A stretch of DNA of 64,000 nt from Escherichia coli. Lineage in GTDB: Bacteria > Pseudomonadota > Gammaproteobacteria > Enterobacterales > Enterobacteriaceae. Below are positions 10,582-53,546 of this stretch, one piece after another; the first letter of the stretch is position 1, and each line of letters begins with the position of its first letter. Below the pieces are notes generated by a model. That model saw only the letters and a list, made by a program, of their open reading frames with translations, was not told the origin of the DNA and made no database searches. Made by a program: the position numbers and the translations under genes. The DNA lies in the NCBI RefSeq assembly GCF_044324875.1, contig NZ_CP172187.1; one strand, given 5' to 3'.

Positions 10582-10647
10582 CTGCTACTGCTACTGCTAC
10601 TGCTACTGCTACTGCTACTGCTACTGCTACTGCTACTGCTACTGCTC
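10582..10647. repeat. Hexanucleotide tandem repeat (CTGCTA)x11
   Basis: Eleven perfect units counted directly at the 5' edge of repeat B copy 2; the equivalent position in copies 1 and 3 is not expanded. Confidence 0.9.
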
Positions 10648-47915: not shown

Positions 47916-48704
47916 ATGACATCAGACAATATCGCTGAATATGTTGGTGAGAATAATCAATTTACTGAGAAGCCTGTAACTGAATACCCCCCGGTGATAC
48001 AGGATAATACAGTGACCACTAAAGACTATCTGTACAGCAATAATATTGATACTGACCTTTTAGTGGTTATCGGAGGGCTTATTGTTATATTGTTTCTCAT
48101 GATGCTTATCATGTACTTTATTAATTCTCTCAGGCATAAGGAATTAACTGAAATACTGACAAAAATATCTTTTCCTGAAAAATCCGGGAGCAATTCGCTT
48201 AAACCGGAAGCGGTCAGCTGTAATTTGTTGTCCCTGTGTGTGCTGGCACCGGTATTCTGTACACCCAAAAAGCTGGCTGAAGTTTCCAGGGAGATCATCG
48301 TGGCGAGTGCGCAGGAGATTGCATGGACGCCGGGGAGCAGTCGTATTGATGGTCATCAGGGCGAAAATATTACCTGGTCTCTGTCGTCACAGTCTCATGC
48401 CGATAAATACGAGCTCATCAATAAAACGTCCCGTGTTTCTCCTGACAGTGGCCGTTTTTATGAACCGGACACAGTTCTGGATCACCGTGAACGGGTACGC
48501 CTTTTTATTCAGATCCAGTTTCCGCATGGGAGTGACTGGTCTGAAGTATTGCGCCTGACTGACATTGTTGCAGAGAAGGTCTCTTCCGGCAGGACTGCAG
48601 GTGCGTATTCCGCTCTATTCGATCACGGATTGGCATCGAAGTCCGATCAGCGATTCGCATCCATTCGATCAACCGGGAACTTAACTTTTTCTACCGCTTT
48701 TTAA
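47916..48704 (+). CDS. Hypothetical single-pass membrane protein (262 aa) inserted between traT and traD; 3' end runs into the IS terminal repeats
   Basis: ORF-track frame 47850..48704; ATG at 47916; TM helix LLVVIGGLIVILFLMMLIMYFI; the last ~30 codons overlap the IS21-type terminal repeats beginning at about 48602. Confidence 0.5.
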   Translation: MTSDNIAEYVGENNQFTEKPVTEYPPVIQDNTVTTKDYLYSNNIDTDLLVVIGGLIVILFLMMLIMYFINSLRHKELTEILTKISFPEKSGSNSLKPEAVSCNLLSLCVLAPVFCTPKKLAEVSREIIVASAQEIAWTPGSSRIDGHQGENITWSLSSQSHADKYELINKTSRVSPDSGRFYEPDTVLDHRERVRLFIQIQFPHGSDWSEVLRLTDIVAEKVSSGRTAGAYSALFDHGLASKSDQRFASIRSTGNLTFSTAF

Positions 48705-49456
48705 CGCGTTTTTTCGCTGCTTTCCACTACCGGGGGATTTTTCCTCAGTGACTCTCCCTGAAGGACCACTCGGTGTGAGTTATGTACCAGTCTGTCCAGG
48801 ATGGCATCTGCTGTTGTTGGGTTCTCCATCAGACCATGCCATTTATCTACCGGGAACTGGCTTACCACTATCGTGCTGCTTTGTCCGTAACGATCCTCTA
48901 TGAGCTCCAGAAGGTCATTACACTGGGCGTTACTTAACTGTTCCAGCCCCAGATCGTCCAGGATTAGAACCTGTATTTTTTGCAACTGTTTCAGATATTT
49001 CAGCCAGCTGCCATCAACACGTCCCTGAGCCAGTTGTTCCAGTAATCGCCCGGTTCTACAGTACCGGACGCTGTGTTTCTGTCGACATGCCTGTTCGCCC
49101 AGCGCATTGGCTATCCAGCTCTTGCCACATCCTGTCGGACCGGTTATCAGCAGGTTTTTCCTGTGGGTTATGTAGTGGCCGTTCAGCAGTTCTCTCATCT
49201 GTTCAGCCCGCAGACCTCTTGAGGCCGGATAGCGCAGCCCTTCCGGTGTTGCCTGGTATTTCAGGCCGGCATTTTTTCTCAACCGTGCCACACGGCTGTT
49301 TTCCCTGCTCAGAAGCTCGTCATCAACCAGCAGCGTCAGCCTTTCCTCGAACGACAGTTCGTCGTAGGTCTGAGGCGTTTCCCGCTGCCGTATCAGGCTC
49401 CCGGCCATCGCCGGGAGTTTCAGTTGGGTCAGTTTGTTTAACAGGTTATCACTCAT
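48701..49456 (-). CDS. istB: IstB-like AAA+ ATPase transposition helper
   Basis: ORF-track frame 48701..49699; internal start MSDNLL...; Walker A GPTGCGKSW and Walker B LILDDLG. Confidence 0.8.
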   Translation of the reverse strand: MSDNLLNKLTQLKLPAMAGSLIRQRETPQTYDELSFEERLTLLVDDELLSRENSRVARLRKNAGLKYQATPEGLRYPASRGLRAEQMRELLNGHYITHRKNLLITGPTGCGKSWIANALGEQACRQKHSVRYCRTGRLLEQLAQGRVDGSWLKYLKQLQKIQVLILDDLGLEQLSNAQCNDLLELIEDRYGQSSTIVVSQFPVDKWHGLMENPTTADAILDRLVHNSHRVVLQGESLRKNPPVVESSEKTR

Positions 49457-49472
49457 ACTGTTGTTCCTTCTG

Positions 49473-51119
49473 TCAGTGGTAGTAGCCCGGACCACGCAGG
49501 TTTTCATGCTCTGAAGCATATGCCGGATGTTGTTCGCCCTGGCGGGATAATGGAAGCTCCAGGTTCTCCCGATGGTGACGCAGCAGATTGTCGATAAAGC
49601 GTCTGTCAGGGGCGTTATAGTGCAGGGCAACGTAACAGGCCTTTTCCAGCCGTTCCGGGCCGTATTTTTTCTGAAGTGCCAGCAGCCCCAGAACTGCACG
49701 ATAAGCCAGTTCCGGATGGGGTTTTGCCTTCAGCATGGATTCAACCACCCGGCCTGTGGACGGGCCCGTACGTTTTCCCTGCTCGATCAGGCGTTCCGGT
49801 GTCCATGTCCCGTGCTGCCGGTGGCGCTCTGGCATGTGAAGCGGATTGGTTGTGTGTTTATATTCATGTGTGCTGCGCGGATGTTGCGCCACACACTGCC
49901 CCTTGTGCCAGAGCTGTACCACCGACTGCCCCGCCTTCAGTGACAGACGCTGACCGACCAGTTCGTGTGGAACGGAGTACCAGTGACGGGCATATTCAAC
50001 GTGGTAGTCAGGGCCAACCTTCACAGCTTTGTATTCCGTGTATTCATAAGGTGCCAGAGGCAGCGGAGAGAGTGCTGGCGCATCCAGTATGCGGAAGCGT
50101 TCTGCACGGGTTTGATTGCCGTACCCCTTCATTGGCCGGTTATTCATGTCTGTCAGTAACTCCCTAAGGCGCGCATTCAGCGCCCTGAGCGTGTGGAAGG
50201 TTTCATTACGGATGCGGGCAAGAAGCCATCGTTCAACGATGAGGACGCCGTTTTCTGCTTTTGGTTTATCTTTAGGTTTGCGTGGTCGGGCCGGGATGAT
50301 AACCGTGCCATAGTGCTCAGCCAGTGCCTGATAACTGTCGTTGATGACAGGCTCATATCGATCGGCCTTTTTCACTGCGCTTCTGAGGTTATCGGGGATG
50401 AGCAGCTTCGGTACGCCGCCCAGGAAGGTCAGGCAACGGCTGTGGGCATTTAACCATGACATCATGTCCTGACCTTCGCACGCTTCAACGTAGGTATAGT
50501 TGGACGCCCCCATTACGGCCACGAAGATTGCCACGCGGCGTATCTCACCGGTGTCCGGATTAATAACAGGAACCGTAGGACCACAGAAGTCGATAAAAAG
50601 CTTTTCGCCGGCACGATGCTCCTGGCGCATGGAGAGACGTCGCGTTTTTTTCCACTCCCGGTAGCAACGGCAGAAGTGCGAGTATCCCATCGCTTTGTTA
50701 CCCGCCTGTGCCTTGTATTCCATCCACAACAGTTGCCGCGTCACACCTGGTTTTCTCATTTCCGTATCGAAGTACAACATGTCAGGCATTACAAGCTCTG
50801 ATGCAAAGGTGTCTTTGGGCGGAAAAATGAGTTTCTCCAGCGTGTCATGGGATATATCAGCAGGTAATGGCCATGACAGAGAAGAGGCTTTGAAGCGGGC
50901 AAGAACCTCAAAAACGGTTGAGGCGCTGATGTGTAACGTCAGTCCGATACAACGGTTAGTCAGCTTCTTGTCGAACTTGAGCTGAAGGATCTTAAAACAG
51001 GTTTCCATAGTGCTCCTGGATTTTCTCTTTCTGGACATTGACGTCTCCACTGGTTTAAACACGGCAATGGAGACTGTGGTGAAAAGAGTTAATTCCCGGA
51101 GTGACTGGCAGGATGCCAA
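49473..51119 (-). CDS. istA: IstA-like transposase (start uncertain)
   Basis: 548-aa ORF whose 3' end overlaps istB; HTH-like N-terminus; two-gene arrangement diagnostic of the IS21 family. Confidence 0.75.
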   Translation of the reverse strand: MASCQSLRELTLFTTVSIAVFKPVETSMSRKRKSRSTMETCFKILQLKFDKKLTNRCIGLTLHISASTVFEVLARFKASSLSWPLPADISHDTLEKLIFPPKDTFASELVMPDMLYFDTEMRKPGVTRQLLWMEYKAQAGNKAMGYSHFCRCYREWKKTRRLSMRQEHRAGEKLFIDFCGPTVPVINPDTGEIRRVAIFVAVMGASNYTYVEACEGQDMMSWLNAHSRCLTFLGGVPKLLIPDNLRSAVKKADRYEPVINDSYQALAEHYGTVIIPARPRKPKDKPKAENGVLIVERWLLARIRNETFHTLRALNARLRELLTDMNNRPMKGYGNQTRAERFRILDAPALSPLPLAPYEYTEYKAVKVGPDYHVEYARHWYSVPHELVGQRLSLKAGQSVVQLWHKGQCVAQHPRSTHEYKHTTNPLHMPERHRQHGTWTPERLIEQGKRTGPSTGRVVESMLKAKPHPELAYRAVLGLLALQKKYGPERLEKACYVALHYNAPDRRFIDNLLRHHRENLELPLSRQGEQHPAYASEHENLRGPGYYH

Positions 51120-51347
51120 TCAATGATCGGAAGCATGCCAAATCGTGATCGATTGTGATGCCAAACTGTGATCGGAGATGGATGCCAAATCATGATCGAT
51201 TCGAATGCCAAACTGCGATCGATTCAGATGCCATTTTGCAGCAGGCGGGTATCACCACCGGCATACAGGGTACACCTGGTCTGTTTCTGTGAATTAACCC
51301 CACATCATCCTTTTCTGCCCTGTTCCAGATTTTCCCGGAGTTTCATC

Positions 51348-53546
51348 ATGAGTTTTAACGCAAAGGATATGACCCAGGGCGGTCAGATTGCGTCCATGCG
51401 TATCCGCATGTTCAGCCAGATCGCCAATATCATGCTTTACTGCCTGTTTATTTTTTTCTGGATACTCGTTGGTCTGGTTTTATGGGTAAAAATAAGCTGG
51501 CAGACGTTTGTGAACGGCTGTATTTACTGGTGGTGTACCACGCTGGAAGGCATGCGGGATTTAATCAAGTCCCAGCCAGTATATGAGATTCAGTATTACG
51601 GCAAAACCTTCCGGATGAACGCTGCCCAGGTACTGCATGATAAATATATGATCTGGTGCGGTGAGCAGCTATGGTCCGCATTCGTTCTGGCGTCTGTCGT
51701 GGCCCTGGTTATTTGCCTGATCACCTTCTTTGTTGTCTCCTGGATTCTGGGGCGTCAGGGTAAACAACAGAGCGAAAATGAAGTCACAGGTGGTCGTCAG
51801 CTGACAGACAATCCGAAAGACGTTGCCCGGATGCTGAAAAAAGACGGCAAGGACTCCGATATCCGGATTGGCGACCTGCCGATTATCCGGGATTCCGAAA
51901 TCCAGAACTTCTGTCTGCACGGCACGGTCGGGGCCGGTAAGTCGGAGGTTATCCGTCGTCTGGCCAACTACGCCCGTCAGCGCGGTGATATGGTGGTGAT
52001 TTATGACCGTTCAGGGGAATTTGTTAAAAGTTACTATGATCCCTCCATCGATAAAATCCTGAATCCGCTGGATGCCCGCTGTGCCGCATGGGATTTGTGG
52101 AAGGAGTGCCTGACACAGCCGGATTTTGATAATACCGCAAATACTCTGATCCCTATGGGTACAAAAGAGGACCCGTTCTGGCAGGGTTCAGGACGTACCA
52201 TTTTTGCGGAAGCGGCGTACCTGATGCGTAATGACCCCAACCGCAGCTACAGCAAACTGGTGGACACACTGCTTTCCATCAAAATTGAAAAACTGCGTAC
52301 CTTCCTGCGTAATTCACCGGCAGCCAACCTGGTGGAAGAGAAAATTGAGAAAACGGCGATTTCCATCCGTGCTGTGCTGACCAACTACGTGAAAGCCATC
52401 CGTTACCTGCAGGGGATTGAGCATAACGGTGAGTCTTTTACCATCCGTGACTGGATGCGTGGTGTCCGGGAAGATCAGAAAAACGGCTGGCTGTTTATCT
52501 CGTCGAATGCCGACACCCATGCCTCCCTGAAGCCGGTGATCTCCATGTGGCTGTCCATTGCCATTCGTGGTCTGCTGGCAATGGGAGAAAACCGTAACCG
52601 TCGTGTGTGGTTTTTCTGTGACGAGTTACCCACGTTACACAAACTGCCGGACCTGGTGGAGATCCTGCCGGAAGCCCGTAAGTTCGGAGGCTGTTATGTG
52701 TTTGGTATCCAGTCCTATGCCCAGCTGGAAGATATCTACGGTGAGAAAGCGGCGGCCACGCTGTTTGACGTCATGAACACCCGTGCTTTTTTCCGTTCCC
52801 CGAGCCATAAGATTGCAGAGTTCGCTGCCGGTGAGATTGGTGAGAAAGAGCACCTGAAAGCCAGCGAGCAGTATTCCTACGGTGCTGACCCGGTACGTGA
52901 CGGGGTATCGACCGGTAAGGATATGGAGCGTCAGACACTGGTCAGTTATTCCGACATTCAGTCTCTGCCGGATCTGACCTGCTATGTCACTCTGCCCGGA
53001 CCGTATCCGGCAGTAAAACTCTCCCTGAAATATCAGGCACGACCGAAGGTCGCTCCGGAGTTTATTCCGCGTGACATCAACCCGGAAATGGAGAACCGTC
53101 TGAGTGCCGTACTTGCTGCAAGGGAAGCAGAAGGTCGCCAGATGGCCAGCCTCTTCGAACCGGAGGTTGCCTCCGGAGAAGGCGTGACTCAGGCTGAACA
53201 GCCACAACAGCCACAACAGCCACAACAGCCACAACAGCCACAACAGCCACAACAGCCACAACAGCCAGTGTCTTCTGTCATGAATGATAAGAAGTCAGAT
53301 GCAGGTGTGAGTGTTCCGGCAGGGGGGATCGAGCAGGAGCTGAAAATGAAACCGGAAGAAGAGATGGAACAGCAACTGCCACCCGGGATCAGTGAATCCG
53401 GTGAAGTGGTGGATATGGCCGCTTATGAGGCATGGCAACAGGAAAATCATCCGGACATCCAGCAGCAGATGCAGCGTCGTGAAGAGGTGAACATTAATGT
53501 GCACCGGGAGCGCGGGGAGGATGTTGAGCCGGGAGATGATTTCTGA
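51348..53546 (+). CDS. traD: TraD, type IV coupling protein
   Basis: ORF-track frame 51168..53546; true start [22 protein letters not shown] at 51348; Walker A GTVGAGKS; matches F TraD from memory. Confidence 0.95.
53199..53261 (+). repeat. 9-bp tandem repeat (CAGCCACAA)x7 encoding the TraD C-terminal (QQP)n tract
   Basis: Counted directly in the sequence. Confidence 0.9.

Follow-up and report, generated by a model that had tools for sequence, protein, structure and literature searches.

What is a perfect 9-bp tandem repeat doing inside a conjugation gene, and does it matter how many units the repeat holds? The question is raised by a short segment of the 64-kb stretch of Escherichia coli DNA analysed here (hereinafter, the window), in which seven consecutive perfect CAGCCACAA units occupy positions 53199-53261 of the plus strand, preceded by GAA and followed directly on the 3' side by CAGCCA and then by GTG. 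An earlier note on this DNA, made from the letters alone, had given these coordinates and described the units as perfect, and both statements are borne out: Tandem Repeats Finder reports 53197-53267 with a period of 9, 7.9 copies, 100% matches, 0 indels and a score of 142, and a three-unit probe hits this site alone in the window (5 overlapping matches), with 0.00 matches expected from 100 dinucleotide-preserving shuffles. Because the CAGCCA is a partial eighth unit, the run that codes for glutamine and proline is 69 nt long (53199-53267) rather than 63 nt. The reading frame of the tract is that of traD, the plus-strand open reading frame (ORF) ending at 53546, and the encoded peptide is AE-QP(QQP)7-VSS, in which QP(QQP)7 makes up a 23-residue Q/P run, residues 618-640 of the 732 residues of TraD as numbered from the ATG at 51348 (MSFNAKDM...). 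The repeat, its host gene and the neighbour of that gene are:

53199-53261, plus strand: seven perfect CAGCCACAA units (sequence read, Tandem Repeats Finder, probe against shuffles)
53199-53267, plus strand: the whole Q/P-coding tract, seven full units and the partial CAGCCA, encoding QP(QQP)7 (sequence, ORF listing)
51348-53546, plus strand: traD, type IV coupling protein of an F-like plasmid, 732 aa and stop (ORF listing, Pfam, TrwB homology, traD annotation in matching plasmid records)
53546-58816, plus strand: traI, relaxase/helicase of 1,756 residues, its start overlapping the stop codon of traD (ORF listing, annotation of matching records)

That the gene is traD, as the earlier note had supposed, is supported by the Pfam domains of the product, by its homology to TrwB and by the annotation of matching records. 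The ORF product contains TraD_N (residues 32-128, E 2.8e-35), TrwB_AAD_bind (residues 172-561, E 4.2e-117) and TraG-D_C (residues 419-541, E 2.8e-19), and the TrwB chains 1e9r and 1gl6 in the PDB match residues 161-573 with E 3e-47; it combines the TraD_N membrane domain with the TrwB-like nucleotide-binding/all-alpha domain, the architecture of an F-type type IV coupling protein (T4CP) TraD. In thousands of IncF plasmid records, matching DNA is annotated as traD and traI. With regard to the immediate surroundings, the traD of the window lies just downstream of an IS21-family insertion; no identical IS-traD junction turned up in the plasmid collection or in the complete E. coli genomes, and the one plasmid in which the same IS adjoins traD differs in carrying a deletion.

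Which part of the protein, then, does the repeat encode? C-terminal to the TrwB-homologous region, TraD has a further 159 residues, and this long extension, with its acidic tail (...EPGDDF) and with traI adjoining, is of the kind for which TraM binding is predicted. The tract begins 44 residues past the end of the TrwB-alignable region (573), and also past the end of the Pfam core (561), in agreement with the earlier note, which had assigned it to the C-terminal extension; from the end of the tract to the C-terminus of TraD there are 92 residues. An alignment of 10 tails, that of the window together with nine F-like TraD tails (50-74% identity), reveals conserved blocks on both sides, namely LAAREAE...LFxPD N-terminal to the tract and GGxEQEL...LPPGI..SGE..D..A..W...QRREEVNIN...ExG C-terminal to it, and the terminal QRREEVNIN...ExG part is invariant across all 10. 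The segment between LFxPD and GGxEQEL is gapped and non-conserved and is the sole length-variable part of the tail. In TraD of the E. coli type, this segment consists of Q/P repeats; in the TraD types of Klebsiella, Salmonella, Serratia and others, it lacks QQP and contains A/P/T/Q-rich runs of various lengths, poly-Ala included. The spacers of these distant clades were seen via a protein-database search with the TraD tail, which returned only fragments and short-tract cluster representatives and is unfit for a distribution of copy numbers. Two parts of the tail are distinguished in what follows:

53169-53369, plus strand: low-confidence, non-conserved spacer segment containing the tract (AlphaFold2 model, 10-tail alignment)
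53430-53543, plus strand: last 38 codons of traD, the putative TraM-binding end of the tail (invariant QRREEVNIN...ExG block; function assigned from literature)

An AlphaFold2 model of the last 248 residues of TraD, built on the ten-sequence alignment, is poor overall (mean pLDDT 54.7) and is used here for the contrast between flanks and tract only. In this model, fragment residues 124-190 have a pLDDT below 50 and no secondary structure, with the exception of residue 135 (the listed segments are 124-134 and 136-190), and the tract itself, fragment residues 134-156, has a pLDDT of 31-35, likewise with no secondary structure; on either side of the segment, helices are predicted with confidence (fragment residues 95-119 and 206-230). 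As for function, TraM binding was reportedly mapped in R1 TraD to the 38 C-terminal residues (Beranek and co-workers, 2004) and in F TraD to the last 8 residues (Lu and co-workers, 2008); Sastre and co-workers reportedly showed in 1998 that the C-terminal ~140 residues add both specificity and efficiency to F transfer. In a published scheme of the TraD extension, the QQP motif and the TraM interaction domain are separate parts (Lang et al., 2011, PMC3245843, Fig. 8). The earlier note had the tract lying in the extension that contacts the relaxosome; the location in the extension stands, but the tract is not itself the contact, given the separate TraM domain (Lang et al., 2011, PMC3245843). Nor would its position suggest otherwise: 92 residues separate the tract from the C-terminus, and the segment that holds it is the one part of the tail that is not conserved.

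How new is such a repeat? It is said to have been noted already when the traD of R100 was sequenced, around 1990. Moreover, we have to conclude that the feature is already known as the QQP-motif variable region of F-like TraD (Lang et al., 2011, Mol Microbiol 82:1071, PMC3245843), with which the window shares the protein, the position in the extension and the tripeptide repeat, agreeing in every feature tested: sequential QQP in the extension, upstream of the TraM domain, and a length that differs among related plasmids. According to the same study, F TraD carries QPQQP and R1 TraD a tract of 23 residues. The latter has the same length as the tract of the window, and nothing essential differs between the two. 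F TraD is orthologous, with the same flanks (..VTQAE, then QP.., then VS..NDKKSD..) and the same end (...EPGDDF), but has one full unit, too short to slip easily, where the window has seven. To this picture the present analysis adds the scale of the variation (0-40 units), its tempo, two synonymous unit types and hybrid arrays.

The earlier note had suspected that a slippage-prone tract of this kind may vary in length and had proposed a comparison of unit number among related plasmids. A 597-nt query across the tract matched 3,983 plasmid records, 3,874 of them in full length, mostly from Escherichia and then from Klebsiella, Shigella and Salmonella; among complete E. coli genomes it matched 3,213 replicons in 2,803 of 5,426, and the spans were sampled from 3,162 replicon records. 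From each ranking 58 evenly spaced records were taken, and matched-span lengths were calibrated on 25 fetched sequences. BLAST identity was dropped as a means of counting records with a given number of units, since split, overlapping alignment pieces give 100% identity despite differing unit numbers. Among the 58 plasmid records sampled from 3,874 there are 18 distinct spans of 543-684 nt, and among the 58 of 3,162 E. coli replicon records 19 distinct spans of 543-777 nt; the difference between span and query is a multiple of 9 in 55/58 and 56/58 records, respectively. The single-unit allele (the F-like QPQQP) is the commonest single state, at ~20% of these spread samples. In the 25 fetched plasmid and replicon records, which are non-random and were chosen partly for extreme spans, the counts are 1, 3, 4, 5, 7, 8, 9, 10, 11, 12, 14, 15, 17, 18, 26, 27, 33 and 40; the longest array, in CP145701, consists of 40 units (A35G5 in the notation introduced below) and encodes a Q/P run of 122 residues. 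A 20-nt left-boundary pattern, conserved in all alleles, located 120 loci with 0-16 units in metagenome contigs, and a scan of species-representative genomes yielded 2 loci only. Overall, the number of units ranges from 1 to 40 in complete plasmids and goes down to 0 in metagenome contigs.

The tempo of this variation is evident from arrays on identical backgrounds. Four 146-kb plasmids of bloodstream E. coli with an ISEc23 insertion common to all of them (CP088462, CP088579, CP088633 and CP088819) are identical over 6,528 bases of flanking sequence and contain 15, 17, 14 and 18 units, respectively, and CP095511 and LR130565 contain 10 and 26 units with 0 differences in 3,988 bases, which is the largest difference in unit number, 16, at zero flanking substitutions. 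The record nearest to the window over the 597-nt 3' end of traD, AP026457, has flanks that are 100% identical and 4 units instead of 7. Unit number varies far faster than point substitution, and the tract is a hypermutable in-frame repeat. The comparison that the earlier note proposed refutes invariance, and its claim of length variation is strongly borne out by the direct counts and the zero-substitution flanks; taken as a whole, that note was right about length variation and imprecise about relaxosome contact, and what it had picked out is a real, known and modest feature.

Could the differences in unit number instead result from mis-resolution of a short tandem repeat in sequencing or assembly? 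There are signs of such trouble in the metagenomes: of the 122 contigs from metagenomes or species genomes, 12 terminate within the tract or at its edge, the metagenome counts cluster at 3 and 6 units, near the expectation for collapse at common k-mer sizes, and the mixed metagenome arrays are suspiciously symmetric (A2G2, A3G3 and A5G5), resembling collapse products. Peaks, symmetry and broken contigs are all to be expected if repeats that exceed k are collapsed by de Bruijn assemblers or interrupt their contigs, and the metagenome counts are probably distorted by assembly; for this reason these loci are used here for the existence of variants and for junction types rather than for the distribution. 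Similarly, arrays above ~15-30 units exceed the length of short reads, so that some database values may be assembly estimates for which long reads are needed. The existence of variation is unaffected, because ordinary reads cover arrays of 1-15 units (15-141 nt) in full, and because finished circular plasmids from numerous laboratories differ in length strictly in steps of 9 nt, their units being perfect and their flanks undamaged; furthermore, Sanger-era sequences already differ, with QPQQP in F and 23 residues in R1 (Lang et al., 2011, PMC3245843). Mis-assembly bears on the exact metagenome values and on the longest arrays, and as an account of the variation as such it is very improbable.

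The fine structure of the arrays sheds light on what is being preserved. There are two dominant unit types, CAGCCACAA (A, the type of the window) and CAGCCGCAA (G), which are told apart solely by a synonymous change in the third position of the proline codon and have their own flanks: EPEVASGE(G/D) on the left and VSSV(I/M)NDKK on the right for the A type, EPDVPEVVSGED on the left and VSPAINDKK on the right for the G type. The arrays are pure for the most part, with a single unit type in 20/24 clean plasmid arrays and in 100/107 clean metagenome arrays. The rare other unit variants found in good assemblies (CCC, a terminal CCT, CAG for CAA) are nearly all synonymous, and the few non-synonymous or frameshifted variants come from very low-coverage contigs or contig ends. 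Because nearly all unit variants in good assemblies are synonymous, the peptide is not free to drift, and the tract is not junk. The frame is preserved as well: the tract measures 9n+6 nt in 24/25 fetched plasmid and replicon records, the exception being CP048854 (L006), with a 6-nt in-frame deletion, and across 132 loci with intact boundaries the same length rule applies, the exceptions among clean arrays being L006 again and the low-coverage contig L126. All arrays from annotated, complete plasmid records are in frame, and traD is annotated as full length in the fetched plasmids. When an array is mixed, the A units always come first and the G units follow, an A-type left flank being joined to a B-type right flank; the hybrids in complete plasmids are A35G5, A29G4, A26G1, A10 followed by a G-type partial unit, and A3G2. 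Such an arrangement is what is left by a crossover within the array, or by a junction in it that goes back to an ancestor, both blocks having afterwards expanded and contracted independently.

These data also bear on the idea that the repeat acts at the level of DNA or RNA, as an array of protein-binding sites, as a regulator of traI translation or as the start of an antisense gene. The array forms a regular DNA motif and lies 280 nt ahead of traI, which could be taken to point in this direction, and so could the minus-strand ORF at 52635-53261, which starts inside the array (MWLLWLLW...). Against this, the unit variants keep the frame and the amino acids of TraD, and related TraD clades have unrelated DNA that encodes a similarly biased peptide. 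The RNA-structure reading was dropped because the region folds no better than shuffles (z = -0.96), the tract being unpaired in the centroid structure. The antisense ORF, too, was set aside as a mechanical by-product: it lies wholly within traD, and each round of slippage would give it a different N-terminus. An action of the repeat as nucleic acid is, in our estimation, barely credible.

What, then, keeps the number of units in motion, and to what effect? Slippage is an established behaviour of perfect short tandem repeats, and slipped-strand mispairing during replication would most likely raise and lower the number of units in traD, with occasional recombination inside the array; sequence data do not distinguish slippage from unequal recombination. 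Because the unit is three codons, a change in length adds or removes QQP and never turns the gene off. The Q/P run may serve as a flexible tether that connects the ATPase motor, together with one flanking helix, to the conserved terminal module, the end of which would bind TraM in the relaxosome, and each unit would add three residues of reach. Comparable connectors exist elsewhere: the linker of FtsK and the proline-rich spacer of TonB are, like the tract in TraD, P/Q-rich low-complexity segments that join modules and tolerate changes in length, and the broad family of hexameric DNA-pumping ATPases that includes TraD and TrwB also includes FtsK. These spacers, however, are not known to be encoded by perfect, hypermutable repeats.

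Tethers of widely different lengths seem to be tolerated by TraD, so that the variation is for the most part probably neutral or close to neutral, and the great spread of lengths among circulating plasmids suggests weak constraint rather than fine tuning. The broad spread of lengths, with no evident preferred state save the single unit, which is too short to slip, fits mutation pressure on a weakly constrained spacer. Near-neutrality is inferred from the tolerance of many lengths; some extreme alleles could be impaired in transfer, and the 'conjugative' typing of these plasmids in PLSDB is a prediction from gene content. The single-unit allele could owe its commonness to selection no less than to the stability that comes with being too short for slippage. 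On balance, we consider it probable that the tract is a hypermutable, in-frame 9-bp repeat that encodes a disordered Q/P spacer, with length variation that is driven by slippage, weakly constrained and mostly near-neutral.

The principal competitor of this near-neutral account is an adaptive one, in which mutability itself is selected. The length of the tether would set the reach of the six TraD tails to the TraM tetramers on oriT and, as in a rheostat, would tune the efficiency of transfer, the specificity for substrates (the plasmid's own DNA as opposed to mobilisable plasmids) or the susceptibility to F-pilus RNA phages that require TraD; a plasmid population would then always hold variants suited to different conditions. 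The extreme mutability of the tract and the purity that is kept in arrays of up to 40 units are compatible with this proposal, as are the synonymous unit variants, which imply a constrained peptide, and the fact that other F-like TraD clades keep a length-variable, compositionally biased segment at the same position. It has also been proposed that heterogeneity of the extension, including the length of the QQP motif, may underlie the different requirements of R1 and F for R17 infection, and that phage pressure drives the diversification of T4CPs (Lang et al., 2011, PMC3245843). Nevertheless, slippage-prone perfect repeats are hypermutable whether selected or not, and mutation pressure suffices to account for a distribution that is broad and without an obvious preferred length besides the non-slipping single unit. 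A search of the full-text literature found no experiment on the effect of tract length on transfer, the specificity or efficiency of which the earlier note had suggested it may tune, and none linking it to any other phenotype.

The comparison with classical systems of this kind is instructive. Phase-variable contingency loci are known from genes of Haemophilus, Neisseria and Campylobacter, and the tract resembles them in being a perfect short coding repeat whose copy number changes far faster than point mutations accumulate. The 9-bp unit of traD, in contrast, never shifts the frame, so that the length of the protein varies and there is no switching on and off. Because a change of frame or expression, the defining feature of those loci, is absent, the tract should not be filed as a phase-variable locus. 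All things considered, selected tuning of the tether is unlikely, although not negligibly so. A more elaborate version of it, which we regard as quite unlikely, would have the QQP array as a selected mutator of tether length that, through frequent slippage, keeps all populations of F-like plasmids polymorphic for the reach of the TraD tail, efficient docking of the plasmid's own TraM-bound relaxosome being traded against mobilisation of foreign plasmids and entry of R17/MS2-type phages, and recombination within the array would reshuffle motor and TraM-binding tail between alleles, as the hybrid arrays may suggest.

TraD is the gatekeeper through which IncF plasmids with resistance and virulence genes reach the secretion channel, and its tail decides which DNA is accepted. 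If the length of the spacer affected transfer or phage entry, the spread of plasmids in E. coli, Klebsiella, Shigella and Salmonella would be under a control that evolves rapidly, and the tract offers a natural allelic series of 0-40 units on identical backbones. In practical terms, the lengths of traD in databases and annotations of 'partial TraD' need care, because short-read assemblies break or collapse at the tract; and because it is among the fastest-changing sites in these plasmids, the tract could discriminate between outbreak plasmids that are otherwise identical.

In hybrid traD alleles the array of the QQP tract begins with CAGCCACAA units and changes within the array to CAGCCGCAA units, the upstream flank being A-type and the downstream flank B-type. 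Such arrays are found at the tract-bearing loci L142 (CP145701), L144 (CP091706), L146 (CP032165), L143 and L145, and further at L017, L021, L023, L032, L043, L064, L124 and L131; the longest, A35G5, encodes a Q/P tract of 122 residues. Because an A-type upstream flank is joined here to a B-type downstream flank, the hybrid array marks, judging by its sequence, the point at which two alleles of the traD tail recombined.

Many contigs end at or within the QQP tract (loci L031, L033, L045, L057, L075, L089, L100, L114, L120, L122 and L133), which is apparently a place where short-read assemblies break or misjoin, and the TraD lengths recorded in databases therefore need to be treated with care. 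In public protein sets, 'partial TraD' fragments are numerous, and the TraD C-terminal tail is also present in some proteins annotated as TraB or TraC; examples of these two kinds of entry among the matches of the protein-database search are P0014, P0062, P0064 and P0085. One of the truncated contigs, L133 (CAAGKF010000127.1), is assigned to a metagenome-assembled genome of a 'Lachnospiraceae bacterium' and carries an enterobacterial traD tract; this is probably a plasmid contig that was placed in the wrong genome bin.

Upstream of traD, the window carries an insertion sequence with the following parts:

~48609-51240, IS21-family element, between traT and traD
48701-49699, minus strand, istB
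49473-51119, minus strand, istA
51111-51233, terminal repeats

The element, which RefSeq names ISSso4-like where it occurs in another plasmid, is inserted within the 3' end of a small hypothetical gene, and traD begins approximately 100 bp farther downstream. It may be that traD and traI are severed from tra-operon transcription by the insertion. The insertion at this position, between traT and traD, is absent from all plasmid-collection records, with the best coverage in any one place reaching 61%. In other plasmids, the traT-traD gap contains IS66-family insertions (ISEc23 and ISCro1). The window's IS21-family element also lies directly upstream of traD in plasmid pE203449_106 (L147, NZ_JBRERN010000003.1), where the gene order is antirestriction pseudogene, IS and traD, the upstream tra genes being deleted and the traD array consisting of 10 units.

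The window contains a second simple repeat:

10582-10646, leading region, perfect (CTGCTA) repeat, 10.8 copies, 100% match

This repeat closely follows a SAM-dependent methyltransferase gene, on the downstream side of that gene, and the only ORFs that overlap the repeat are short mechanical ones (poly-Leu or Ala-Thr runs). The matched span varies by plasmid, from 620 to 649 of a 651-nt query, with differences that are not clean multiples of 6.
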